NCBI GenBank assembly: GCA_035509195.1
Contig: DATJLT010000164.1
Span: forward strand, 1-52,711
DNA: 52,711 bases
Origin: Streptosporangiaceae bacterium
Lineage (GTDB): Bacteria; Actinomycetota; Actinomycetes; Streptosporangiales; Streptosporangiaceae
Direction of reading: 5' to 3'
Shown here: piece after piece, positions 3,364 through 48,428 of the stretch
Numbering within the stretch: the stretch's first letter is position 1
Layout: each line of letters begins with the position of its first letter
Program-made: the position numbers and the translations under genes
The notes under the pieces: generated by a model
What the model was told of the DNA's origin: nothing
The model's database searches: none
Seen by the model: the letters and a program-made list of their open reading frames with translations, nothing else

Positions 3364-4449
3364 ATGAGTGATGATGGCGTGGTGACTCGCGCCGCGGACC
3401 TCGGTATCAGCATCGGAATCATGCGGAAGGGTCGGACGGGCTCGGTCACCGACGTCCAGGGCGTCGGGGTCGGGCACGCGACCGTCTGGCGTGACGAGCC
3501 GCCGCCGCCGCAAGGCCGCGGCATCGCCAGGACCGGTGTCACGGTCCTCGATCCAGGCGGCAACCTCTTCCGCGAGCCGGTCCCCGCAGGCGGCGCGGTG
3601 CTGAACGGCGCGGGGGAGTGCACCGGGTTCCTCGGGGCGGCCGAATGGGGCCTCGCCGAGACGCCTGTGTTCCTGACCAGCACGATGCAGGTCGGCCGGG
3701 TCTACGACGCCGCCTGCGAACTGCTGATGGCCGAAGATGACGGCATCGGCGCGGAAGACGTGCTCATCCCGATCGTGGCCGAGTGCGACGACAGCTACCT
3801 CAGCGAGTCCCGCCGGATGCAGGTGACCAAGGAAGACGTCAGGCAGGCGCTCGATGCGGCCAGGACGAGAACGGCCCCCGAGGAGGGCGCGGTCGGCGCG
3901 GGGACAGGCATGTCCTGCCTCGGCTTCAAGGGCGGCATCGGCACGTCGTCGAGGCTGACGCCGTCAGGGCACGCGGTTGGCGTTCTTGTCCTCACCAACT
4001 TCGGCAGCCAGGAGCGCCTGACCATCGACGGAGTCCCGGTCGGCCGCCTGCTTCCTGCCGCACCGGAGCGGGCGAGAACGGCAGGCTCGTGCATCGTCGT
4101 GACCGTGACCGACGCGCCGCTCGATTCCGCCGCCTGCGCGCGGCTGGCTCGCCGGGCCGGGCTCGGCCTGGCCAGGACCGGCTCGACCGCCAGCCACGGC
4201 AGCGGCGAGATCTTCCTCGCCCTCGCCACCGGCCTGCGCCGGCCAGGAGAAGGCGGGCCCAAGATCACCGGCTGGGACCTTGACCCGTTCTTCGCCGCCG
4301 CCGTCGAGGCGACCGAGGAAGCCGTCATCAACAGCCTGCTCGCTGCCCCGACCGTGACCGGCCGCGACGGCAACACCTCGCAGGGACTGCCAGCCGATCG
4401 GGTCAGGGACATCATGGCCGCCGCCTACCAGGCACGGGCACGCGCATGA
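3364..4449 (+). CDS. P1 (S58/DmpA-type) aminopeptidase family protein
   Basis: 361 aa. ITDVQGVGVGHATV...GVTVL and GTGMSCLGFKGGIGTSS are typical of DmpA/L-aminopeptidase-like self-processing peptidases. The stop overlaps the next start (ATGA at 4446-4449). Confidence 0.75.
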   Translation: MSDDGVVTRAADLGISIGIMRKGRTGSVTDVQGVGVGHATVWRDEPPPPQGRGIARTGVTVLDPGGNLFREPVPAGGAVLNGAGECTGFLGAAEWGLAETPVFLTSTMQVGRVYDAACELLMAEDDGIGAEDVLIPIVAECDDSYLSESRRMQVTKEDVRQALDAARTRTAPEEGAVGAGTGMSCLGFKGGIGTSSRLTPSGHAVGVLVLTNFGSQERLTIDGVPVGRLLPAAPERARTAGSCIVVTVTDAPLDSAACARLARRAGLGLARTGSTASHGSGEIFLALATGLRRPGEGGPKITGWDLDPFFAAAVEATEEAVINSLLAAPTVTGRDGNTSQGLPADRVRDIMAAAYQARARA

Positions 4450-6497
4450 ACCCGCCGGAAGCTCCAAGGATCCCGGTCACCACGACCAGGCACGGCCAAG
4501 AGGAAACCGACGACTACGCCTGGATGCGTGACCACGAGGACCAGAGGCTACGCGACTACCTCACCGCCGAGCGCGCCTGCTACGACGCGAGCGCCGCGAG
4601 GTGGGCGGACCTGACCGATCGTCTCTTCGTTGAGTCGACCGGCAGGCTTCCCGACGGGGACAGCAGCGTCGACTGGCCCCTCTCAGGTTTTGTCTATCGC
4701 ACCAGGACCCCGCCTGGGGCGGAAAACCTGCAGTTTCTCCGGTCAAGGGCAGGAGAATCTTCTGAACAGCTGCTCCTCGACGAGAACACCATTGGGGATC
4801 AAGGCTACGTGGAGGTCGCAGACCGGCTGCCGAGCCCCGACGGCAGGCTTCTCGCCTGGTCGGCCGACCTCACCGGCGCCGAGATTTACCAGGTCAGGAT
4901 CAGGGATCTGGGGACGGGCAAAGACCGGCCCGACCTGATCGAGCGCGCCTACCCCGGCCTTGCCTGGTCATCGGACTCCTGCCACCTCTTCTACCTGGTC
5001 CCTGACCACCTGAACCGCCCCTACCAGGTCTGGCGGCACGAACTCGGCCAGCCGGCGACGGCCGACACGCTCCTCTACACGGAGACCGACGCCAGGTACG
5101 AGCTCACCCTGCACGGCTCGCGAAGCGGCGAGTATGCCGTGATCACGTCGGCCTCCCGCGACACCACCGAGGTAAGGCTGATCCCGCTCGCGGACCCGCT
5201 GGCCAGCCCTCGCGTGCTCAGGCCCCGCAGGCGGGGCGTCGAGTACCACGTCGACCACGCCCGCACCGGCACGTTTTACGTGGTAACTGACGAGGAAAAC
5301 CAAGAATTCTCTCTGCAAAAAAGCACCATAGACGGCCAAGCCGGGACCTGGACAGGCATGGCCTGCCCCGCCGTGGCGCCCGCCCGCGATGACACCAGGC
5401 TGCATCGCTGCGACGTCGTCGGGGACAGGCTCGTCCTGACCTTGCGCCGGGCGGGCGCCCCGTTGCTCGCGATCTCCGACCTGGACGGCGGCCAGGTCAT
5501 CGAGGTACCAGCCAGCATCCCGGCCGCCTCGATCAGGATCGAGCACGCCGAGGACTACGAGGCGGGCTCGGTCATCATCGCCGAGGAGTCACTGGTACAG
5601 CCGCCCGCCTGGTACCGGCTTGACCTCGCGACCGGCGAGCGCGAGTTGCTGAAACGCCGCGAGGTCCCCGGCTACGACCCTGACAGGTACCTGACCGAAG
5701 TGATCTGCGCCGTGGCCAGGGACGGCACGAAGATCCCCGTGACGCTCGCGTACCTGACGGAGACCAGGCTCGACGGCACGGCGCCCTGCCTGCTTTACGG
5801 CTACGGCGCGTACGAAGAGTGCTCAGATCCCGAGTTCACCGCGGGTTTGCCTTCGCTGCTTGACCGTGGCGTCGTCTACGCGATCGCGCATGTGCGGGGC
5901 GGCGGCGAGGGCGGACGTAGCTGGTGGCAGCAGGGCAGGCTGCGGACCAAGCCGACGACGTTTACTGACTTCATCGACGTCGCCGACTGGCTGGACGAGT
6001 CAGGGGTGGTCGACGGCCGCAAGATCGCGGCCAACGGCCTGTCCGCTGGCGGCCTCCTCGTCGGCGCGGTCTACTCGATGCGTCCTGGCCGCTGGTGCGG
6101 CGTCGTCGCCGAAGTGCCGTTCGTCGACTGCGTGACGACCATGCTCGACCCTGACATCCCGCTGACCATCAACGAATGGGACGAGTGGGGCGACCCGCGT
6201 GACGCCGGGGACTACGCCTGCATCAGGTCGTACTCGCCGTACGACAACCCGCCTGCCGGGCCCCGGCCGCCGCTCCTTGTCACCGGCGCGATCGAGGATC
6301 CCAGGGTCGGCGTGCACGAGCCGGCCAAGTGGGTCGCCAGGCTCAGGGCGACCTCGCCAGACGGGCAGCCGTCACTGCTGTTCCGAGCCGAAGTCGGGGC
6401 CGGCGCCCACACGGGCCCGTCGGGCAGGTTCGCGCAGGCCAGCTACGACGCCGAGGTCAACGCGTTCGTACTCAGCTCGATGGGCATCAGCTCGTAA
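4446..6497 (+). CDS. ptrB: oligopeptidase B (S9A prolyl-oligopeptidase family serine protease)
   Basis: 683 aa. The N-terminus DDYAWMRDHEDQRLRDYLTAERAC matches protease II. The nucleophile elbow is GLSAGGLLVG. It has a C-terminal alpha/beta-hydrolase domain. Confidence 0.8.
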   Translation: MNPPEAPRIPVTTTRHGQEETDDYAWMRDHEDQRLRDYLTAERACYDASAARWADLTDRLFVESTGRLPDGDSSVDWPLSGFVYRTRTPPGAENLQFLRSRAGESSEQLLLDENTIGDQGYVEVADRLPSPDGRLLAWSADLTGAEIYQVRIRDLGTGKDRPDLIERAYPGLAWSSDSCHLFYLVPDHLNRPYQVWRHELGQPATADTLLYTETDARYELTLHGSRSGEYAVITSASRDTTEVRLIPLADPLASPRVLRPRRRGVEYHVDHARTGTFYVVTDEENQEFSLQKSTIDGQAGTWTGMACPAVAPARDDTRLHRCDVVGDRLVLTLRRAGAPLLAISDLDGGQVIEVPASIPAASIRIEHAEDYEAGSVIIAEESLVQPPAWYRLDLATGERELLKRREVPGYDPDRYLTEVICAVARDGTKIPVTLAYLTETRLDGTAPCLLYGYGAYEECSDPEFTAGLPSLLDRGVVYAIAHVRGGGEGGRSWWQQGRLRTKPTTFTDFIDVADWLDESGVVDGRKIAANGLSAGGLLVGAVYSMRPGRWCGVVAEVPFVDCVTTMLDPDIPLTINEWDEWGDPRDAGDYACIRSYSPYDNPPAGPRPPLLVTGAIEDPRVGVHEPAKWVARLRATSPDGQPSLLFRAEVGAGAHTGPSGRFAQASYDAEVNAFVLSSMGISS

Positions 6498-11349: not shown

Positions 11350-13521
11350 TCAGCTCCCTGCGATGTTGGTGAGGCTTTCCCTGGCGGCGGCGGTAAGGGA
11401 GTCGCCAGGGGCGAGGATGCGCTCGCAGCGCTCGACGGTGTCGCGGAGCATGTTGGTGGCGTCGCCCAGGCGGCCGACGGCATAAAGCGCGTGGGCGAGG
11501 TGTACCTTCCTGGCCAGGGTGTCCGGGTGATCGACGCCCAGGATCCGCACTGAGTCCTCGCAGGACTCCTCGTATAGCCGCAGTGCGGTGGCCATCCGCC
11601 CGGCCGAGTGGTGCGCGGCGGCGAGCCGGTCCCTTGCCTCGATCGTCCCTGGGTGAACCGGGCCAAGCGCTTGCTCGCGACCGGAAACGACGCGTTTGTA
11701 CTGTGCGAGTGCTTCCTTGAACCTCTTCGATGCGAGGTAGACGTCGCCGAGTTTCTGTGCGCTTTCCAGGGTCTGCGGGTCGGACTGGCCCTGTACCCGC
11801 TCCCGCTCGCCGAGTACCCGCCGGTACAAGCGGATGCTGTCGTTGGTCTCGCCCGCGGCCTGGCAGGCGTCCGCGAGGGCACTGAGCGCCTCGAGCGTGT
11901 CCAGGCTGCTCGGACCGTGAACCTGATCGCTGATGCGGTACACGCGGTCGAGCACGGTCGCGGCGTCCCTCGGACGTCCCGCCGCGATCAGCGCGCGGCC
12001 AAGTCTTACCTGGAACGCGATCGTCGCCGGGTGGTCCTCCCCGAGTTGCGCGGTCCGGTCGGAAAGCACTCGCTGGAACCACGGCATCGCCTCGGCGGCC
12101 CGGCCCGCGGCGAGGAAGGCGGCCGCGAGGTGATCACTGGCAGCCAGCGAGTCTGGGTGACCAGGCCCGAGGAAGCGGTCGCTGGCGGCGGCGACCTGAT
12201 TCCAGTGCGGCGCCGCGAGCGCGCTCAGGTGCGCGTCTTCCATGCTCTGCCCGAGCTTGAACGCCAGCCGGTAGGCCGAACTGGCCCAGAGCCGGTCACC
12301 GGCCAGGCTGCTGAGCGCGATCGCCGATGACCTGAAGCTGTCGGTCAGCCAGGACCTCGGTTCGTCGTCGGGCCAGGCTTCGAGCAGCGCGCCGGCCGCC
12401 ACGGTCACGGCGGCGTCGACGATCTCGGCCGGCGTAGCAGAGCGGACGGCAGCGGCGATCGCCGAGTTCATCGTGACGACCGGCGGCTCGGGCGCCGGGT
12501 CGATGGTCAGCAGGCCCGCGCGCTCGAGCGTGACGACCGCGGCCCACGCCTGCTCGGGACTCGCCTGACCGCCGGTCAGGTAGCTCCGCGCGGCCGGCGA
12601 CGTGAACACGGTGCCTGGAATCCGGTTGAAGTCCAGCCACGACGCAAGGATCAGCATCGGCTGCACCGGTCCTACGCGCGAAATCCTGTCGGTGTGCTCG
12701 ACCGACAGGATCCAGCTGATCGCGGCCGTCGATGACTGGCCGCCCCGCGCTATCTGATCCAGCTTCCGCAGAAAAACGTCCTGGTAGTCACGGCAGGACA
12801 GGATGGAGGTACCGATCACGGCGCTGGCCTGCACCAGCGCAAGCGGTTCGCCGCCTAGGTGATCGACGAGGTCGATCGCGCCGGTGCGCTGACCGCGATC
12901 CTCGGTGAGGCGGTCCATCAGGTAGCTGAGTGCCTCACGGCGGCTGAAGCCGGGAACCCCGAGCACAGTGACCTCGCCTGGATCGAGGCCGACCGGGTCG
13001 GCGATCGTCAGCAGGGTCCTGCCGGTGTCGCCGGCTGGCCACAGGCCGTCAAGATCCCACGGGCTCGCCAGCCCGTCGAGCACAACCAGCCAGGAGCGGT
13101 CGGTCTCCGACAGCCAGCCGAGGAAGCGGGCTGCCGCGGAATCCGCGTCACCGGCCGGGTCGATGCCCATCGCGGCGACCGCCGCGGCAACATAGCCGGT
13201 CAGGATCGCGGCCCGGTTTGACGCCGTGATCCAGACAAGCAAGTCAAGCTCGCTCGCCTTCCACAGCGACTCGGCCACGTAAGAGGCGAGCTGGGTCTTG
13301 CCGCTCGGCGCGAACCAGTCGGGTCCGCCCTGGCCGCCTTTCCTGGCCGGTGCCAGCGCCAGCGTACGCCCCCGCGCCAGGGCCTGCCCAAGGCCCGGCG
13401 CGGACTCAAGCCGGCTGACGAAGCCGTCGGCCAGCGGTGGCACTAGCCCTGACCGGATCGGCCAGACTACCTGGCCGCCCGGCGAGCCGGCAGAATCCGG
13501 GGCCATGACTGGGTTGTTCAC
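11350..13521 (-). CDS. STAND-type (NB-ARC-like) NTPase with C-terminal TPR array
   Basis: 723 aa. P-loop-like FAPSGKTQLAS and Walker-B-like WLVVLDGL. The C-terminal half is repeated TPR_12-type units (HPDTLA..LA.AL...GR..EA..L...). Confidence 0.75.
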   Translation of the reverse strand: MNNPVMAPDSAGSPGGQVVWPIRSGLVPPLADGFVSRLESAPGLGQALARGRTLALAPARKGGQGGPDWFAPSGKTQLASYVAESLWKASELDLLVWITASNRAAILTGYVAAAVAAMGIDPAGDADSAAARFLGWLSETDRSWLVVLDGLASPWDLDGLWPAGDTGRTLLTIADPVGLDPGEVTVLGVPGFSRREALSYLMDRLTEDRGQRTGAIDLVDHLGGEPLALVQASAVIGTSILSCRDYQDVFLRKLDQIARGGQSSTAAISWILSVEHTDRISRVGPVQPMLILASWLDFNRIPGTVFTSPAARSYLTGGQASPEQAWAAVVTLERAGLLTIDPAPEPPVVTMNSAIAAAVRSATPAEIVDAAVTVAAGALLEAWPDDEPRSWLTDSFRSSAIALSSLAGDRLWASSAYRLAFKLGQSMEDAHLSALAAPHWNQVAAASDRFLGPGHPDSLAASDHLAAAFLAAGRAAEAMPWFQRVLSDRTAQLGEDHPATIAFQVRLGRALIAAGRPRDAATVLDRVYRISDQVHGPSSLDTLEALSALADACQAAGETNDSIRLYRRVLGERERVQGQSDPQTLESAQKLGDVYLASKRFKEALAQYKRVVSGREQALGPVHPGTIEARDRLAAAHHSAGRMATALRLYEESCEDSVRILGVDHPDTLARKVHLAHALYAVGRLGDATNMLRDTVERCERILAPGDSLTAAARESLTNIAGS

Positions 13522-13613: not shown

Positions 13614-16382
13614 TTATCCGTTACTAACGTTTGCGGCCGTCGCTATATCGTGCACTATGTCGCCGATACCGCGCACTGCACCGTACCTGCGCCTGATCAG
13701 GTCGGCGACAAGTCCCGTCCAGCCGGTCTGGTGACTGGCGCCGAGCCCGGCACCGTCATCGCCCTGGAAATACTCGCTGAACAGCAGGTTGTCGCGCCAG
13801 GCCGGATCGGATCTCAGCGGCTCTGTGCCGCCGAAACAGGGCCGGTGACCGTACTCGTTCGTGCGGAAGATGCCGACGAGCCGGTCGCAGAGATCCACGG
13901 CGATCTCGCCGAGTTCGACCTTGCGGCCTCCGCCTGTCGGGTACTCCACCATCAGCTTGTCACCGAAGAACCTGTGGTAACGCTCAAGCACGCTGATGAT
14001 CAGATAGTTGATCGGGAACCAGATCGGGCCGCGCCAATTCGAGTTGCCGCCGAAAAGCGGCGTGGTCGATTCTGCGGGCTCGTAGTCGATGGAAGCCTGA
14101 AAGCCTTCGACGTTGATCGTGTACGGGTGCTCGCGATGCCAGGCAGACAGTGCCCTGATCCCGTGCGGCGACAAGAACTCCGACTCATCGAATAGCCGGC
14201 TGAGCATCCTGGGCAGCTTGTCAGGACCCGCGAGGGACAGGAGCATCCGCTGGTGGCCAGCCTCCCCCTGGTACTGGCCGCCGTCGGCGACAGCCGGGAC
14301 CTCCCCTTGCGACTCTGTCACATCCTGGCCGGCGAGGAAGCTGGCGAAGCGCTTGCCGACCGCCATGGAGCTGTCGATCGAGCCCTGGTCGATCACGCCC
14401 ATCGCCAGGGCCGGGATCATGCTGGCCACCGAGTGCACCTTGAGCGATACTTCCTGGCCCGTCGGCGTGATGAGGCGGTCGTAGTACAAGCCGTCTTTGT
14501 CATCCCAAAGTCCGCGCCCGTCGAGCGCGTCCCTGATCGCGGCGAAGTGCTCAAGGAACTTCATGACCAGATCGGTGCCTGGACGCCGGCCGGACCAGTG
14601 CAAGGTCAGCGCCATCGTGGCCATGGCCATCGCGTAGAAGCCCATCCAGCCGGTGGCGTCAGACTGCTCGAGCAGGCCGCCGACCGGCAGGTGCGACCTG
14701 TCTATCGGGCCGATGTTGTCCAGGCCGAGGAAGCCGCCTTCGAACAGGTTGTTGCCCTCGGCGTCCTCGCGGTTAATCCACCAGGTGAAGTTGATCAGCA
14801 GCTTGTCGAAGACCCGGCCGAGGAAGTCAATGTCTGTGCCGCCGTCCACCGCGAATACCTCGAGCGCGGCCCAGGCCTGCACCGGCGGGTTCACGTCGCC
14901 GAAGTCCCACTCGTAGGCGGGCAGCGCGCCGTTCGGGTGCTGGAACCACTCGCGGCACAGCAAGATGAGCTGGTACTTGGCGAAGGCCGGATCGACGTGG
15001 GCCAGCGCCACGCAGTGGAAGGCCAGGTCCCAGGCGGCGAACCAGGGGTACTCCCACTTGTCGGGCATCGACATGATGTCGAAGGCGTCGAAGCTGCGCC
15101 AGTGGCTGTTGCGGCCGCTCTTGCGCTGCTCGGGAGGCGGGGGCTGAGCTGGATCGCCGTCCAGCCAGCGGGCGACGTCGTAGTAGAAGAGCTGCTTGGA
15201 CCAGAGCATGCCGGCGAACGCCTGGCGCATGATCATGGCCTCGTCCGCGTTGGCCGCAGGCGGGGTCAGCTCGGCGTAAAACTCGTCAGCCTCAGCCTTG
15301 CGCTTGGCGACTACCTGGTCGAACTCGGGGCCGAACGGGTCGGGGCCAGCCGCCTGACCTGGCTTGCGCAGGCGCAGCCTGACCTCGGCGGTCTTCCCTG
15401 GCATCACCGTCAGCCGGTACCAGGCCGAGCACTTCGTGCCCGTGCGGTCGGGGTTCACCGTGGCGGTGCCGCTGATCACGTGATCCCCGATCCCGTCCTT
15501 CGGATAAGCGGTGACGGGTTCGCTACCGTAAAGGAGAGCCGTGTTGGTCTGATTGTCGCAAAAAAGAAGTTCCGGAGACCTTCCGTCCGGGCTGCCGCTG
15601 GCTAGCAGCTCAAGATCACCGATGAACGGGTGGTCGATGCTGACGCTGGACGGGCCGCTCGCTTTCAGCGCCGGGCGCGGAGCGCCTTCCTCCCACGACC
15701 AGGTGTCGCGCAGCCAGGCGGTCGGCAGGACGTCGAGCGTGGCCTCGTCGGGGCCCGCATTGGTGACCTGGACCTGCATGAGGATGTCGTCGGGGCCTGC
15801 CTTGACGTAATGAACCTCGACGATCCAGAACCTGTTGTCGTCGAAGGCGCCGGTGTCGAGCAGTTCGTACTCGGGCTCCTCCCTGTTGCGTGAGCCGTTC
15901 TCGCTGATCAGGTCGGCGTAGGGGAACTCGCTTTGCGGGTAGTGGTAACGCCAGCGGTTCCAGGTGTGGCTGGGGGTGGCGTCGAGGTACCACCAGTACT
16001 CCTTGACGTCCTCGCCGTGGTTGCCCTGCGTGCTGGTCAGGCCGAACAAGCGCTCCTTGAGTATCGGGTCCTTGCCATTCCACAGGGCAAGGCCCAGGCA
16101 AAGGCGCTGCTCGATGTCGCAGAAGCCGGCGAGGCCGTCCTCGCCCCAGCGGTAGGCGTAGGACCTGGCGTTGTCGTGGGTGATGTAGTTCCAGGCGTCG
16201 CCGTCGGCGCTGTAGTCCTCGCGTACCGTGCCCCACTGGCGTTCGCTGACGTAAGGCCCCCAGCGATACCAGTCGCCCGCCTTCTTCAGGCCGTACTCGA
16301 GGCGGCCGAAGCTCTTGACCCGATCGCTTTCCGCGCCCACACTGACCCCCTCGTCATACTGCCCTGGCCGGTCGTGCCGCAT
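13614..16382 (-). CDS. GH63-like (MGH1 / mannosylglycerate-hydrolase-type) glucosidase
   Basis: 922 aa. The N-terminal [29 protein letters not shown]...[25 protein letters not shown] is characteristic of the large bacterial GH63-related glucosidases. Confidence 0.8.
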
Positions 16383-17691: not shown

Positions 17692-17727
17692 GCCGCACTA
17701 GCCGCACTAGCCGCACTAGCCGCAACG
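17692..17727. repeat. 9-bp tandem repeat GCCGCACTA x3 plus a degenerate fourth unit
   Basis: Read directly: gccgcacta gccgcacta gccgcacta gccgcaacg. It runs into hairpin element copy A. Confidence 0.9.
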
Positions 17728-17866
17728 ATGGCCCGCCGATGCTGTTGGCAGGTGGATGCGAGCAGCAACGATGCCTATTTGATGCGGTACGGGTGACATC
17801 GTTGGCCCGCTGATGCTGTAGGCCATGGGTTCCTCAGCAGCAACGTTGGCCCGCTGATGTTGTTTG
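17719..17866 (-). repeat. composite four-hairpin intergenic element, copy A
   Basis: Four units of the type CAGCA(A/T)CG-N8-11-(C/T)GATGCTG. Colinear with copy D in the same orientation, for example cctatttgatgcggtacgggtgacatcgttgg versus gctacttgatgcggttcccgcgacatcgctgg. Lies between convergent gene ends (17656 / 17874). Confidence 0.7.
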
Positions 17867-17873
17867 AGTAGCT

Positions 17874-23751: not shown

Positions 23752-23783
23752 GTAATTCTGACCCATCGTAATTCTGACCCATC
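23752..23783. repeat. perfect 16-bp tandem duplication GTAATTCTGACCCATC x2
   Basis: Read directly. It sits immediately 5' of the VOC gene start and at the left edge of the atypical-codon cassette. Confidence 0.9.
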
Positions 23784-23833
23784 GTCGCCCTCGACCGCGC
23801 GCAGCCCGCCGAGGCGCCCCAAGCAGTCTTTAC

Positions 23834-27751: not shown

Positions 27752-27760
27752 CGGTCGTAC

Positions 27761-27937
27761 GCGACAGCAACGTTGGCTCGTTGATGCTGTCCGGCGGCGA
27801 AGGGCTGCAGCAACAGTGGAACTTCGTTGTCGCGGGAACAGCGTCTCGGAGCCAGCGTTGTTGTCGCGCGTTGTTCTTGGAACGTCATCTGTGGCTCTGC
27901 GTTGCTGTTGTGCGGCAACGGGCTCTCGTCGCGATCG
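27761..27937 (+). repeat. composite hairpin intergenic element, copy B (more degenerate, extra unit)
   Basis: gacagcaacgttggctcgttgatgctgtc, ctgcagcaacagtggaacttcgttgtcgcggga, acagcgtctcggagccagcgttgttgtcgcgcg and so on. Units 2-3 are colinear with copy C units 2-3. Lies between convergent gene ends (27751 / 27938). Confidence 0.6.
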
Positions 27938-30337
27938 CTAGCCGGCGGGGCAGACGTATAGGGTGCCCTGCGCGGCCGTTGCTGAGCCTTCCGAGTAGTC
28001 CTTGGCGGGGACTGTCTTGCAGTGGCTTCTGACCCAGGTGGCTATGGCACTTGCCTGGGTGGACGTGCCGCCGCCCTGGCCGCCAAGACCGGTGCCACCT
28101 ATGCCGCCGGTGCCGCCCGTGCCGCCGGTGCCGTTGAGCAGGATGAACTTGAGCTGGCCGGTGCTGACCAGTTCCTTGAAACTAGCCAGGGTGGGCGAGG
28201 GCACCGAGCCGCTGAAGCCGCCGATCGGCAGTACTTCCTGGCCGGTGGCGACGATGAACGGCGAGGCCTCTGTCCAGGACTCAACCGCGAGGAGGTACTT
28301 GGCGCCATCCCTGTGTGCCTTGAGGTAGTTGTACAGCTTCAGCTCTCCGCCGGTCAGGGTGGTGGTCGCCGAGGACAGCGCGCCTCCGCCGCCGGCCCCG
28401 CCCGCGCCGGCCCCGCCCGCGCCGGCCCCTCCGGCCGTGCCTGGGAAGCCGCCGCGACCGGGAAGCCGCCCGGTGCCGGTCCCGCCGGGTGCCGCGCCGC
28501 CGGGTGCCGCGCCACCGGGGAAACCGCCGCCAGAGCCGCCGCCTGGCGGGGCACCACCGGAGCCGCTGCCGGGGAAGCCTCCGGCCGGCGCCGTTCCGCC
28601 GCCAGGGAGTTTCCCGCCGCCGGGGAGTTCGCCGCCACCGCGACCAGCTAGCCGGCCGGCCAAGGGACCGTAACGGCCCGCGCCGCGGAGCCCGGGCGCG
28701 CCGCCGCCCGCGCCGCTGTTGTACGCGCCTGCCGGCCCGGCGCTGGCGTCAAACGAGCTTCCCGCGTAGCGGGTGTCGAGCACAGAAGACGCCCAGGTCG
28801 CGGGGGCGGCGAGCATGACGGCAGCCCCCGCGGCGACCGCCGCGAACATCAGTTTCCTGCTCGTGCCGCGCGACAGCCTGCCAAGGATCAGCGCGACCAC
28901 GGCGGCCGCGCCAGCGACCGCGATCAGCCACTTCACCCACGGCAGGAACGCCGGGTATCCCGACCACAGGTACAGCGCCCAGCCGACCTCGATCGCGACC
29001 GCGGCCGGCAGCAGCCAGCCCCTGGAATCCCCTGACCGGTACCAGCGGGCGAACAAAACGATGCCGGTGCCTGAAAGCGCGGCGAGCGGCGCCGCGAGCG
29101 CGGCGACGTACGCGGTATGAGGAATCACGCTCATGACGCTGTAGATCACACCGAAAGTCAGCAGCCAGGTGCCCCACATGATCAGCCCTGCGCGCTGCTG
29201 GTCTGTCCGTCGGGCACGGCCGCAGGCGACCACTCCGACGGCGAGTGTCAGCAGCGCAAGCGGCAGCAGCCAGGCGATCTCTGGCCCGAAGCCACCGCTG
29301 ATCAGCTTGGTCAGGCCGCCGCCGACGTGAGGAGCACCGCCTCCGGCCGCCGCCGTCCCGGCCGGCGTCGCGGCTCCCAGGTCGTTCGCCGCCCGGCCGA
29401 GTGCCCGGCTGCCGCCGGTGATGCCCGGTCCTGACGACACCGCGCCTGGCACGTTGATGCCGAAACGCTCGAGGCCGTTGTAGCCGAAGACCATCGCGAA
29501 CGCGCTGTTGTCGGTAGAGCCGTCGACGTAGGGGCGGTCCTTCGCCGGGGTCAGCGTGTAGAGCATGATCCAGGACAGCGACACCGCGAGCATGACCACG
29601 CCGGCCGTGCCGAGTTGCCAGAGCCGGCGACGGAGGCTGGCCGGCGCGCAGATCAGGTACCCGATGGCCAGGGCCGGGAGCACCATCCAGGCCTGGAGCA
29701 TCTTGGCCTGGAAGCCGAGACCGACCCAGACCCCGGCACCGATCAGGGGGCGCAGCCTGGCTTCAAGTACAGCCGTCTGGTACGCGTTGGCGGCAAGTAT
29801 CAGGCACATGGTGAGCGCGCCGTCTTCCATGCTGTGCCCGAACATGGAGGCGGCGACCGGCGTGATCGCGAAGATCCCCGCCGCCAGCAGGCCTGGTACT
29901 GCGCCCGCCCAGCGGCGCACCACGCGGTACATGAACAGCACGGAGACGATGCCCTCGATGACCTGCGGGAGCGCGAGCGACCACGGGTGGAAGCCGAAGA
30001 TGCGAGCAGAGAGCGCCTGTGGCAGGAAGGAGCCTGCCAGCTTGTCGATCGTGATCGTCGCCGCCGGGTCGAAGGCGCCGTAGAAGAATGCCTTCCAGCT
30101 CACCGACATGCTCTTCACTGCGGTCGAGTAGAACGGTGCCAGGCCGGCGTCCTTGATATGCCAGGCGTACAGGAGCAATGCGAACGCGGCGATGCCAAGC
30201 AACGCGGGACGGGCCCAGGGCGGCTGCCCGTCAGGCGATCGCCAGAACTGAAGGCGGCTGTGCCTGTTCATCTTGGGCGCGGTGCCTGGTTGCGCGGGCA
30301 CGGTCCGCGCGGGCACGGCATCGACCGCGAACGACAC
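27938..30337 (-). CDS. glycosyltransferase family 39 (ArnT/PMT-like) membrane protein with Gly/Pro-rich linker
   Basis: 799 aa. The N-terminal multi-TM domain (DKLAGSFLPQALSARIFG...) is typical of GT39. It has a long low-complexity G/P/A segment and a conserved C-terminal globular part. GTG 30337 is preceded by AGGAGG. Confidence 0.8.
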   Translation of the reverse strand: MSFAVDAVPARTVPAQPGTAPKMNRHSRLQFWRSPDGQPPWARPALLGIAAFALLLYAWHIKDAGLAPFYSTAVKSMSVSWKAFFYGAFDPAATITIDKLAGSFLPQALSARIFGFHPWSLALPQVIEGIVSVLFMYRVVRRWAGAVPGLLAAGIFAITPVAASMFGHSMEDGALTMCLILAANAYQTAVLEARLRPLIGAGVWVGLGFQAKMLQAWMVLPALAIGYLICAPASLRRRLWQLGTAGVVMLAVSLSWIMLYTLTPAKDRPYVDGSTDNSAFAMVFGYNGLERFGINVPGAVSSGPGITGGSRALGRAANDLGAATPAGTAAAGGGAPHVGGGLTKLISGGFGPEIAWLLPLALLTLAVGVVACGRARRTDQQRAGLIMWGTWLLTFGVIYSVMSVIPHTAYVAALAAPLAALSGTGIVLFARWYRSGDSRGWLLPAAVAIEVGWALYLWSGYPAFLPWVKWLIAVAGAAAVVALILGRLSRGTSRKLMFAAVAAGAAVMLAAPATWASSVLDTRYAGSSFDASAGPAGAYNSGAGGGAPGLRGAGRYGPLAGRLAGRGGGELPGGGKLPGGGTAPAGGFPGSGSGGAPPGGGSGGGFPGGAAPGGAAPGGTGTGRLPGRGGFPGTAGGAGAGGAGAGGAGGGGALSSATTTLTGGELKLYNYLKAHRDGAKYLLAVESWTEASPFIVATGQEVLPIGGFSGSVPSPTLASFKELVSTGQLKFILLNGTGGTGGTGGIGGTGLGGQGGGTSTQASAIATWVRSHCKTVPAKDYSEGSATAAQGTLYVCPAG

Positions 30338-31710: not shown

Positions 31711-31736
31711 GGCTGCTTGCCTAATCGGCTGCTTGC

Positions 31737-32651
31737 CTAATCGGCCGCGCCTGGCTGCCTGGGTACCCGGTGACTGGTGCTGGTGTGCTTGGGCGCCGTC
31801 GCGGTGGGCGACGCCTGACCTCCGATCGGCCGGCGCCCGGTGACCAGGCCGGCCTCGTTGACAACCGAGGAGGCCGTGATTCCCTTGAAACCCGCGCGGG
31901 CAAGCATCGTCGCCCAGTTGCTGATCGAGACCGGCCGTTCCTGCGCCCTGACCAGGTAGCGGTAGCTGTTCTTGGCGATACGCCACCAGCCGCCGATCCC
32001 CTTCCTGGCCAGCGCACCCATCTTTGACCTGATGATCGCGCGGTCCTGGCTGGTCACGCCTCTGCCGAACATCATGTCGGCGATGATCAGCGTGCCTCCC
32101 GGCTTCAGCCAGTGATAGGCGGCCGCGACCAGCCTGCCCTTGTCGGCGTCACGCAGGTAATGCAGCGCGTAGCTGGTGACGATCACGTTGACGCTCTCGG
32201 CCGGCAGCGATAGCCGTTCGATCGGCGAGGCGAGGCACTCGAACCCGATCATCGCACGCTGCCCGGCTCGCTCCTCAAGCTTGGCGATCATGGTTTCACT
32301 CGCGTCGATCGCGAGTACCCGCGCCCCCCGCTCAGCCAGCGCCAGGCTGAGTTGCCCTGCTCCGCAGCCGATGTCAACGACTTGATCGCCTGGTTCTATG
32401 CTGACGGCGGCGAGAACCGCGGCGCTCACCTTCTCTAGCCCGGACGGTGAACGACGGTCCCAGGCCGTGGTGCGCCTGGCGAGCAGCCGCCGCAACGCCC
32501 GGCCAATCTTAGATCTCCCTAGAATTCCGAACGGCGAGGCGACATCGGCCGAAGTCGCTTGCGAACGCAACGAGGCGTAATAATTGACCGTCTTTGCGGT
32601 CGGCAATTCATTTTCGGCAGATTTCTGTCCGCTCACTGTAGAATCCGTCAT
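31737..32651 (-). CDS. class I SAM-dependent methyltransferase
   Basis: 304 aa with motif I VVDIGCGAGQLSLALA and LKPGGTLIIAD. Confidence 0.8.
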   Translation of the reverse strand: MTDSTVSGQKSAENELPTAKTVNYYASLRSQATSADVASPFGILGRSKIGRALRRLLARRTTAWDRRSPSGLEKVSAAVLAAVSIEPGDQVVDIGCGAGQLSLALAERGARVLAIDASETMIAKLEERAGQRAMIGFECLASPIERLSLPAESVNVIVTSYALHYLRDADKGRLVAAAYHWLKPGGTLIIADMMFGRGVTSQDRAIIRSKMGALARKGIGGWWRIAKNSYRYLVRAQERPVSISNWATMLARAGFKGITASSVVNEAGLVTGRRPIGGQASPTATAPKHTSTSHRVPRQPGAAD

Positions 32652-32799
32652 CGCTCCAGGTTAGCAATTCAGCCCGCCCGCAAAGTGGTATCGAAACCCT
32701 GCGCGGAAACTATTTCCCGTGCCGTCGGGACAATTAGGCCGCAATCCTATTTGACCACCTGTTGTCATTCCATGGACATACTGCCGCGCCCGCCCGGTC

Positions 32800-32948
32800 G
32801 AGCAACATCAGATGTCCACCGATGCTGCTGGTCCGGCTCCGGCTACAGCATCACTGTCCCGGCGATGTCGCGGGAGCAGCATCAACTAGCCACCGTTGTC
32901 GCCGGGTCCTCTTGGCCAGCAGCAACGCATGGCCATCGATGCTGCTCG
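32800..32948 (+). repeat. composite four-hairpin intergenic element, copy C
   Basis: Four units: gagcaacatcag..cgatgctgctgg, ctacagcatcac..ggcgatgtcgcggga, gcagcatcaac..accgttgtcgcc, ccagcagcaacgc..cgatgctgctcg. An ungapped hand alignment to the reverse complement of copy D gives about 115/149 identities. Confidence 0.75.
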
Positions 32949-33065
32949 CCCCGGTGCCAAGCCCAGGCCGCCCGAGCACTGTGGCCCGGCCGCCCTAAAT
33001 GTCCCGATTTTCGCGCTTGGCGCGAACCCAAGCCCCTCCTTGGCCGGGCTGGCCCGCACGCGCCA

Positions 33066-33147
33066 CGGGCGGGACCGGCTCGGGGCGGGGTGCGGGCGGG
33101 GTTCGGCGCCTGCGGGCGGGAGCGGCTCGGGGCGGGGTGCGGGCGGG
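33066..33147 (+). repeat. two 35-bp G-rich direct repeats (period 47 bp) upstream of the biosynthetic operon
   Basis: gggcgggaCcggctcggggcggggtgcgggcgggg (33066-33100) and gggcgggaGcggctcggggcggggtgcgggcgggg (33113-33147), 34/35 identical. Both are flanked by cgccacggg. Confidence 0.8.
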
Positions 33148-33305
33148 GCGCCACGGGTGGTGACGGCGGAGTGGGCACGGAGCGTTGGGGGCGTGATTTT
33201 GGCGTGATGCGGGCGTTTCGCGGCGCTTTCTGACTATTGACTCATGCGGAGCGTTCGGTGAGCATCGGCGGGAAAGCGGGCAGCCGAGCAGCAAGGGAGC
33301 CGCAG

Positions 33306-45676: not shown

Positions 45677-45725
45677 GCGCGGCACGCCGACTCCCCGATG
45701 CCGGCGCAACGCGGGGGAGCCAGGA

Positions 45726-45875
45726 CGAGCAGCATCGTTGGTTCTGCGTTGCTGCTGGCGGGGCGGATCCAGTGACTACGGTGGCTACTTGATGCGGTTC
45801 CCGCGACATCGCTGGGGCTTTGTTGTTGCATCCGGGGCCGGGCGTACAGCATCGCTGGCTAGCTGATGCTGCTGG
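45726..45875 (-). repeat. composite four-hairpin intergenic element, copy D (inverted relative to copy C)
   Basis: cgagcagcatcgttggttctgcgttgctgctgg ... cgtacagcatcgctggctagctgatgctgctgg. Its reverse complement is colinear with copy C over the full length (about 77% by hand count). Confidence 0.75.
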
Positions 45876-45994
45876 CCGGGCCGCGCGGCCCGGCGGCCGG
45901 GGATCGGCCAGGATAAGAAGGCGACAAATTGACCGGGCGCGCATAAAGTGAACGGGGCCATTGCGCGGGTTCCGTTAGCTGGAAGGATTTCGCG

Positions 45995-48102: not shown

Positions 48103-48224
48103 GATGTCTCCTTGAGAAGAAGGACGGTCATGATTAGTAAATCACCATTCACTAACTACCGCAGCACCGGGGACCGGGCCAGCGGGGACCGGGGCAGCGC
48201 CCGTGGCCGGTTCAGGTTGCGGCG

Positions 48225-48378
48225 CCAGCAGCATCGCTGGCCCCTTGATGTTGTGGGCTGCCTCCGTCCAATGACAACGATGGAACTCTGATGCTGCTCC
48301 CGCAGCAGCGGAGTTCCACTGATGCTGTTAGCAGCGTGCATCCAGCAGCATCGAGGGGCCAGCGATGCTCCTGCTCGA
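48225..48378 (+). repeat. composite four-hairpin intergenic element, copy E
   Basis: ccagcagcatcgctggccccttgatgttgtggg / caatgacaacgatggaactctgatgctgctccc / gcagcagcggagttccactgatgctgttagc / ccagcagcatcgaggggccagcgatgctcctgctcg. It has the same end motifs and orientation as copy C. Lies in a divergent intergenic region (48102 / 48429). Confidence 0.7.
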
Positions 48379-48428
48379 TGGTCCGCGATCGGCGGGCCGC
48401 CCCGGCCGCGCGGAATTGAGGTAAGCGA

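Follow-up and report, generated by a model that had tools for sequence, protein, structure and literature searches.

Among the known intergenic foldbacks, the ERIC/IRU, RIME and Correia-type repeats are imperfect palindromes of ~100–155 nt, and the palindrome-associated elements (PATEs) are derived from IS200/IS605. The repetitive extragenic palindromic (REP) sequences of Proteobacteria occur as inverted doublets forming hairpins (REPINs) and as REP clusters or bacterial interspersed mosaic elements (BIMEs), which are mobilized by REP-associated tyrosine transposases (RAYTs) of the Y1 type (PMC3116915; PMC2817692). REPs are further characterized by a tag, GTAG or CGTC, that stays unpaired on one side of the palindrome (PMC3733652). 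The present analysis concerns a dispersed repeat in a 52,711-nt stretch of DNA from a Streptosporangiaceae bacterium (contig DATJLT010000164.1), hereafter the window, for which an original prediction, made from the letters of the stretch by eye, had proposed five intergenic copies of a ~150-nt element composed of four imperfect hairpins. The repeat is one of a family whose copies have become numerous between the genes of soil Actinomycetota of a narrow lineage, and it is probably a non-autonomous, REPIN/BIME-like foldback element that is mobilized in trans by an enzyme encoded elsewhere.

A profile was built from the five copies and used for an nhmmer search of the whole window. The matches obtained, at 17713–17871 (−), 27759–27915 (+), 32796–32952 (+), 45721–45878 (−) and 48220–48379 (+), had E-values of 1e-35 to 1e-40 and lay within a few bases of the predicted positions. 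No sixth copy was matched by the five-copy profile within the window. The copies (A to E) and their four units are as follows.

17718–17863, minus strand: core of copy A, 146 nt (nhmmer E-value, 9e-39); units at 17838–17862, 17794–17818, 17763–17787 and 17720–17744.
27764–27909, plus strand: core of copy B, 146 nt (nhmmer E-value, 1e-35; envelope, 27755–27918); units at 27765–27789, 27808–27832, 27839–27863 and 27883–27907.
32802–32946, plus strand: core of copy C, 145 nt (nhmmer E-value, 1e-40); units at 32803–32827, 32846–32870, 32877–32901 and 32920–32944.
45728–45872, minus strand: core of copy D, 145 nt (nhmmer E-value, 1e-38); units at 45847–45871, 45804–45828, 45772–45796 and 45730–45754.
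48227–48371, strand ambiguous: core of copy E, 145 nt (nhmmer score, 121 bits on the plus and 96 bits on the minus strand); units at 48229–48253, 48272–48296, 48303–48327 and 48346–48370.

In their predicted orientations the five sites form a single, colinear alignment of ~180 columns with a mean column identity of 65%. Copy C compared with the reverse complement of copy D was 76% complementary over 168 nt, which agrees with the earlier hand count of 115 out of 149 positions. Matches to a regular expression for the unit, albeit a loose pattern, were concentrated at the five copy sites and almost lacking elsewhere in the window, and the expectation for a two-unit pattern was 0.00 in 100 shuffles. 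The orientations proposed for A to D were confirmed by nhmmer. For copy E, the plus strand was favored by the first profile and the minus strand by a later one; its orientation is ambiguous because the copy is almost perfectly symmetric, its two 72-nt arms being 72% complementary. The fifth unit that had been attributed to copy B (to 27937) has no support in the family model, the envelope of which ends at 27918. Contig L001 extends 6.7 kb beyond the 3′ end of the window, and a truncated sixth copy with three units was found in this extension (L001, 12823–12950). It has an alcohol dehydrogenase gene on one side and an Lsr2 gene (13026–13385) on the other, and a C5 cytosine DNA methylase gene (14943–15914) follows 2 kb further on.

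The element is an imperfect long inverted repeat of 145 nt, in which the left half mirrors the right as its complement. There are two 25-nt quasi-palindromes per arm; in the metagenome-assembled genome (MAG) described below, their consensus is CMGCAWCGATGGSCCATCGWTGCKG and is palindromic to its center. The original prediction had described the units as CAGCA(T/A)CG and (C/T)GATGCTG separated by 8–11 nt, with stems of 7–8 bp. The repeated quasi-palindromes are indeed present; however, the unit is a fixed 25-mer, CAGCAWCG-N9-YGWTGCTG, with an inner part of exactly 9 nt (29–31 nt in total with the AA...TT extension), and in the window stems of that length apply to the outer units 1 and 4 only. 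The inner units form poor palindromes there, with 8–16 of the 25 positions self-complementary. Among 26 copies, ~76% of the stem cells are paired. The invariant positions of the unit are arranged symmetrically (C1, C4, A5, C7, G11 / C15, A16, G19, T21, G22, G25), and positions 6/20 are A or T and unpaired in 16–22 of the 26 copies. Judged by the asymmetric positions 2/6/20/24, the orientation of the units is mirrored between 1–2 and 3–4 and does not strictly alternate; unit 4 varies. The sequences GTAG, CTAC, CGTC and GACG each adjoin at most 2 of 104 units, the actual flanks being RAA and TTY, and the module ends in the inverted repeats CAGCAGCATCG ... CGATGCTGCTG.

The element is strictly conserved in length. 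The unit centers lie at alignment columns 14, 57, 88 and 131, which corresponds to spacings of 43, 31 and 43 bp, and the spacers are variable in sequence and constant in length. The core measures exactly 145 nt in 26 of 37 copies, and all five cores in the window are 145–146 nt long though their pairwise identity is only 52–75%. No reading frame through the element is consistently open (13–17 of 26 copies are open per frame), in line with the earlier statement that the copies are not explained by any coding sequence.

Pairing was evaluated on an ungapped alignment of 26 sequences (A4), and the observed counts were compared with 500 shuffles; the values below are the numbers of shuffles that reached the observed one. 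The strongest antidiagonal of the pairing matrix was the whole-element mirror, with 41 positions showing at least 60% pairing. The four local hairpins showed no covariation, the observed values being at or below those of the shuffles (398–462/500 as high), and neither adjacent pairing (units 1:2 and 3:4) nor crossed pairing (1:3 and 2:4; 213–396/500) covaried in comparison with shuffles. By contrast, mirror pairing (1:4 and 2:3) exceeded the shuffles when only the units were counted (0–2/500 in four measures, 26/500 in one) and when the spacers were included (0/500 in four measures, 3/500 in the fifth), and numerous spacer pairs showed several pair types under this arrangement. Thus, four independent hairpins, adjacent pairing and crossed pairing were rejected as the selected structure, and the picture of a string of four hairpins gave way to that of a 145-nt foldback as the evolving unit; it is the mirror pairing alone for which covariation was observed. 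Folding as single-stranded DNA (ssDNA) yielded nested foldbacks for copies E (z, −7.3) and C (z, −4.4) and weaker structures for D (z, −2.6) and B (z, −2.5). Copy A, the most decayed copy of the window, folded no better than shuffles (z, −0.5). As RNA, copy C was likewise predicted to fold into a nested whole-element foldback on both strands (z, −4.9 and −5.7).

A scan of species-representative genomes with the one-unit pattern gave at least 74 matching stretches; among the matches listed, ~25 came from one MAG, the long-read uncultured actinomycetotal genome MFD04463.bin.2.107 (CAWAPP01), and the others were scattered single chance hits. In 25 loci of 8 kb from CAWAPP01 (200 kb), the profile search identified 32 full four-unit copies and several partial ones. 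Ten of the 32 lack the pattern used for the scan and are therefore unselected bystanders, from which a density of about one per 10–20 kb follows. The MAG also holds dispersed single units, doublets and a five-unit form; triple forms exist as well. For the lineage of the window, the corresponding figure is six copies in 59 kb; a total of ~500 copies per genome is only an extrapolation. The MAG was considered as a relative of the window organism and dismissed, as no orthologous genes were seen in the sampled 200 kb.

Using the neighboring Prim-Pol protein as a query, 80 related metagenome loci were retrieved (77–87% identical, 668 kb in total). A single diverged, colinear four-unit variant was detected among them, in contig L083, which is the closest one (Prim-Pol 87% identical) and syntenic with the window. 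This variant occupies a different site, at 576–750 between TetR and SDR genes, and has units like CAACGRCACCGCTGGACCGCYGGTGCTG; given these diverged units, the family therefore has lineage-specific consensus sequences. The other 79 related contigs contained no copy of the family, which is thus lineage-restricted. Proteins of the window were found in identical form on soil and peat metagenome contigs (ENA, JGI, Logan), and five contigs (L001–L005) are 99.5–99.9% identical to the window, which is too close for testing selection. A blastn search of PLSDB plasmids with the consensus gave no match, and in viral contigs the unit pattern produced four chance single-unit matches in low-GC contigs, none of them related.

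At three orthologous sites, one lineage carries the element and another lacks it, which points to insertion. Site E is occupied in the window but not in L083, the spacer of which is without the ~240 nt of extra DNA containing copy E. At site D, the spacer between the WS/DGAT gene and the gene for a 175-aa protein is 318 nt in the window versus ~35–60 nt in contig L090, where the site is empty. Conversely, L083 has an element at the TetR/SDR junction, whereas there is none at this junction in the window, where the two genes overlap. A search for target-site duplications in 37 copies revealed no direct repeat of 3–8 nt above the level of permuted flanks at any offset up to 45 nt, which fits a hairpin-type rather than a DDE-type insertion.

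The window (68% G+C) carries ordinary chromosomal genes, including those for SerRS, two Lnt proteins, L,D-transpeptidase, WS/DGAT, a Prim-PolC-like LigD polymerase and MFS transporters. Pfam analysis of the flanking genes supported the intergenic contexts that had been proposed for all five copies. Copy A lies between the convergent 3′ ends of genes for a beta-lactamase (+) and a VTT-domain protein (−), and copy B between those of an EamA transporter (+) and a mannosyltransferase (−). Copy C is situated in a 585-nt divergent region between genes for a methyltransferase (−) and a DegT-type aminotransferase (+), copy D between the tandem WS/DGAT and 175-aa protein genes, and copy E between the divergent SDR (−) and LigD Prim-Pol (+) genes. 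Overall, 36 of 37 full copies are outside the called genes (binomial P ~7e-29 at 15% non-coding DNA), which substantiates the intergenic bias. The contexts comprise 19 tandem, 8–9 divergent and 5 convergent ones, close to what the intergenic space offers, and show no enrichment at convergent or 3′ gene ends; within the tandem contexts, 12 copies have the same orientation as the genes and 7 the opposite. No hairpin followed by a T-run was found at A or B. In view of this lack of canonical sites and of any context bias, a role as terminators is not supported, and neither is one as the mRNA stabilizers that had been envisaged alongside. No Rfam 15 family matched the window at the gathering score, and around copy C a search at E ≤ 10 returned only chance-level miRNA and sRNA matches (15–17 bits; E-values, 0.9–4.6); thus, no described RNA family accounts for the element. 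In the divergent SDR/Prim-Pol region, an operator-like palindrome, TTAGTAAATCACCATTCACTAAC, was noticed at 48134–48156, with copy E located between it and the Prim-Pol start. The same palindrome (TTAGTAAATCACNATTNACTAAC) is kept in syntenic L083, while the remainder of the spacer is not, and the TetR-family regulator encoded next to it probably uses this palindrome as its site.

As a REPIN/BIME-like element, the repeat would be copied in trans to new intergenic sites, the responsible enzyme having its gene at another place in the genome. This enzyme may recognize the palindromic units as ssDNA hairpins, in the manner of REPIN/RAYT or IS200/IS605 systems, without duplicating the target; alternatively, the units could be recognized as phased double-stranded sites. 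Resident copies would then decay, and effects on neighboring genes, such as those 5′ of Prim-Pol at E or at the 3′ ends at A and B, would be a by-product. The absence of duplications together with the hairpin-rich ends favors a single-strand route of the HUH type. Several points weigh against such an origin. Pfam analysis found no transposase of any kind in the window, in accordance with the earlier remark that no RAYT or transposase partner is visible there, and crude tests of 1.34 Mb of sequence (a YxxxNPxRAG regular expression, and tblastn with two probes) gave no significant match to a Y1/RAYT-like protein. The sole transposase seen near any copy belongs to an unrelated, AT-rich IS5-family element, and the GTAG/CGTC tag of classical REPs is missing. 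Between filled and empty sites, the intergenic DNA at the junctions has diverged too far for exact ends to be read from it, and the mirror covariation, a modest effect (77.8% paired versus 76.1% in shuffles), comes from shuffle tests that subfamily structure can inflate. Finally, a length of 145–146 nt is held at 52–75% identity, and 33 of 37 copies measure 144–146 nt; dead relics should gain indels, yet the length is fixed, so some constraint on resident copies seems to act. Hence, of the original assignment to a REP/BIME- or MITE-like family, the dispersed, non-coding, intergenic palindromic repeat stands, while strict membership in the REPs is not supported, the tag being absent and no RAYT having been found.

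A weak match in contig L070 from the search for RAYT and IS200-type proteins proved to be an HD-GYP/LuxR protein. The same contig carries the AT-rich insertion sequence (IS) referred to above (~892 bp, 4031–4922; IS5-family, DDE_Tnp_4/HTH_Tnp_4), which has the ends GAGRCTTATTCAG and a probable ATT duplication. This element was rejected as a parent of the repeat, since its ends (GAGGCTTATTCAG) are unrelated and the element itself is AT-rich.

In the MAG, many copies are embedded in larger structures. These include ~330-nt composites in which a ~110-nt left module is present and AACCGGGCAWTTC occurs three times, in two direct copies and one inverted copy at the right end; an internal GC-rich inverted repeat was also seen in these composites. 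Other MAG modules are flanked by a 23-nt motif, GCGGACAAAACGCCCATAGTGCC, which nearly always adjoins the module and points inward. In L006, the motif is found on both sides of a run of five units, the two copies forming inverted repeats of 21 nt with 19 of 21 positions matching; the outer motif of 21–23 nt can be written as GGACAAAAC... The core of the 23-nt motif, TTGTCCGCA, is one position off the actinobacterial DnaA-box consensus, a putative resemblance. In the window, the outer motif AAYCGGRCAWWTC of the longer MAG composites, the only outer motif scanned there, was not enriched, and the copies are devoid of the MAG outer motifs save for a weak trace around copy C, where an inverted partner, AAATGTCCCGATT, is located on the opposite side at 32997–33009. 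The GGACATACTGCC/AAATGTCCCGATT pair resembles the inward-pointing 23-nt motif of the MAG and may belong to the element. The sites are listed below.

L019, L013, L024, L034, L044, L046, L053, L060, L067 and L073: composite loci of the MAG, extending ~110 nt to the left and ~45 nt to the right of the module.
L006 7610–7860; L024 6014–6038; L041 3420–3442; L070 2437–2458 and 5344–5366: sites of the 23-nt motif in the MAG.
32774–32785, plus strand: weak outer motif GGACATACTGCC to the left of copy C, read in the sequence.

Three other explanations of the family were weighed. In the main rival, which we consider unlikely, the copies are nucleoprotein arrays used by the host and kept by selection: the four palindromes would be duplex sites, in helical phase, to which a DNA-binding protein attaches as a dimer, e.g., a nucleoid-associated or topoisomerase-type factor, and the copies would serve chromosome organization or local regulation, whatever their origin. 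Gyrase and IHF are known to bind BIMEs. The unit spacings are equivalent to 4.1, 3.0 and 4.1 helical turns, although this argument is rough, with a chance probability of about a few per cent. The uniform core length of the five diverged window copies, the spacers that vary in sequence and not in length, and the lack of compensatory change in the local stems are all consistent with an array, and the symmetric invariant positions with a free choice of A/T at 6/20 fit a duplex reading more easily than a hairpin stem. On the other side, no candidate protein was found, copy A has lost its foldback potential, and independent duplex sites would not be expected to give mirror covariation extending into the spacers. 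Moreover, copies are missing in close relatives sharing the same genes, and hence these loci do not depend on a conserved local function. The array and the trans-mobilized foldback element are not mutually exclusive. A more far-reaching version, in which the elements are no decaying selfish relics and instead form a maintained, phase-locked, BIME-like array of four protein-binding sites, on which a domesticated enzyme encoded in single copy would act, one of a kind new to such repeats in Actinomycetota, is put forward tentatively, as a doubtful proposal toward which the exact length at 52–75% identity, the symmetric contacts, the free A/T at 6/20 and the mirror-covarying spacers point.

A cis-acting or small structured RNA, i.e., a set of terminators, 3′ mRNA stabilizers or RNase targets, or a small RNA family, appears quite improbable. 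The strong predicted folding of both strands of copy C and the position of copies A and B directly after convergent stop codons would suit it, and the MAG 23-nt motif that points into the module could in principle be a promoter element. Classical REPs are described as lying mostly downstream of genes and acting as RNA elements, which is a precedent for this possibility (PMC3733652). Nevertheless, the absence of a hairpin-plus-T-run at A or B, context counts without enrichment of 3′ ends, the mixed orientation in tandem contexts, the negative Rfam search even at E ≤ 10 and the local hairpins without covariation are at odds with an RNA function; in addition, the flank motif keeps no TANNNT −10 box, and the related outer motif is not enriched in the window. 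Still less credit, as a highly improbable case, is given to a classical DDE-type miniature inverted-repeat transposable element (MITE), in which the module would form the interior of a miniature element that is bounded by terminal inverted repeats and is cut and pasted by the DDE transposase of a parent IS. It draws on the inverted repeats at the module's own ends, on the 21–23 nt inverted motif GCGGACAAAACGCCCATAGTGCC that some MAG copies have on one or both sides (both in L006), and on the ~330-nt composites with their inverted AACCGGGCAWTTC. These bracketing motifs leave room for a MITE-type origin in the MAG. The window, where the copies lack outer motifs apart from the trace at C, does not call for one. 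No target-site duplication was found at any offset, no parent with matching ends was detected, the one IS seen having unrelated ends, and the dispersed single units are typical of REPs rather than of MITEs.

Other repeats were observed around the copies and elsewhere. A perfect 9-nt tandem repeat (GCCGCACTA, 3.7 copies, 17692–17724) abuts the end of copy A and looks like a slipped reiteration of the terminal AGCCGCA of the element. Downstream of copy C (33066–33148), there is a 36-nt direct repeat in two copies with 97% identity and a periodicity of GGGCGGGG, whereas to the left of copy E (48168–48199) 2.1 copies of CGGGGACCGGGCCAG are present. Arrays of CCCGGCCCCGC were seen beside MAG copies, in L070 from 2619 onward and in the left flank of L059. 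The G/C-rich arrays adjoining copies may form G-quadruplexes. Further palindromes of the MAG are CATTACTGTTGCC in L016 (5380–5450) and ATGATCAC in L070 (5180–5310), and several repeat modules appear to be combined, mosaic-like, in the intergenic DNA of this genome. In short intergenic spacers of the window, two perfect 16-nt tandem duplications were found, GTAATTCTGACCCATC (2.1 copies) and GGCTGCTTGCCTAATC (2.2 copies), at 23752–23785 and 31711–31745, respectively; both are unusually AT-rich for the genome. The 3′ part of the mannosyltransferase gene (27938–30337, minus strand) contains GC-rich tandem repeats of 9–24 nt (28089–28640) that probably encode a low-complexity Gly/Pro/Ala-rich C-terminal region.

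Compared with the described systems, the element most resembles REPINs and BIMEs. It shares with them imperfect palindromes (here of 25–31 nt) at high density in extragenic DNA, composites with fixed spacing whose inverted halves can fold into a long hairpin, the foldback rather than the single palindrome as the conserved unit, the occurrence of singlets and larger clusters, lineage-specific consensus sequences, and the lack of target-site duplications. It differs from them in having four units per element (a doublet of doublets) instead of two, in the lack of a GTAG/CGTC tag and of a RAYT found by the crude tests of 1.34 Mb, and in its host phylum, Actinomycetota. Typical REPIN populations are also far less diverged than the present copies, which keep their exact length at 52–75% identity. 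Similar to the ERIC/IRU, RIME and Correia repeats, the element is an intergenic, non-coding, whole-element imperfect palindrome of 100–160 nt that is found in either orientation and is patchy at orthologous sites; however, it has no sequence similarity to these families and consists of four reiterated 25-nt sub-palindromes with phased spacing, and neither a TA or other duplication, as in Correia repeats, nor an IHF-type site was recognized. With DDE-type MITEs it has in common the small size, the absence of coding capacity, inverted ends, many copies and, for some MAG copies, bracketing inverted motifs of 21–23 nt, but it is GC-rich like its host, contains reiterated palindromes, and shows neither target-site duplications nor a parent IS. 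The resemblance to PATEs lies in a non-autonomous nature, in subterminal hairpins as putative recognition elements and in insertion without duplication; unlike in PATEs, no IS200/IS605 TnpA/TnpB was seen in the searched sequence, and no conserved 4–5 nt target by the left end was defined.

Literature searches on REP, REPIN and MITE families of actinobacteria returned nothing relevant, and the searchable REP/RAYT papers contained no mention of Actinobacteria. For Proteobacteria, there is extensive work on REP/REPIN repeats and on the domesticated transposases that go with them; in the literature searched, they are not described for Actinomycetota. The family is thus previously undescribed, while the kind of repeat to which it belongs, of the REP/REPIN and MITE type, is already well known; it provides a clean and abundant example from an uncultured soil actinobacterial lineage, with a ready profile. 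In practical terms, such a repeat will break short-read assemblies and can mark strain-level insertion polymorphism, and the element may change untranslated regions (5′ or 3′) of the genes beside it, e.g., of Prim-Pol at E. Among the repeats of this kind, the fixed-length four-unit foldback is an unusual architecture. If any feature could hint at a function other than selfish spread, it is this strict length, which is kept in spite of heavy divergence.

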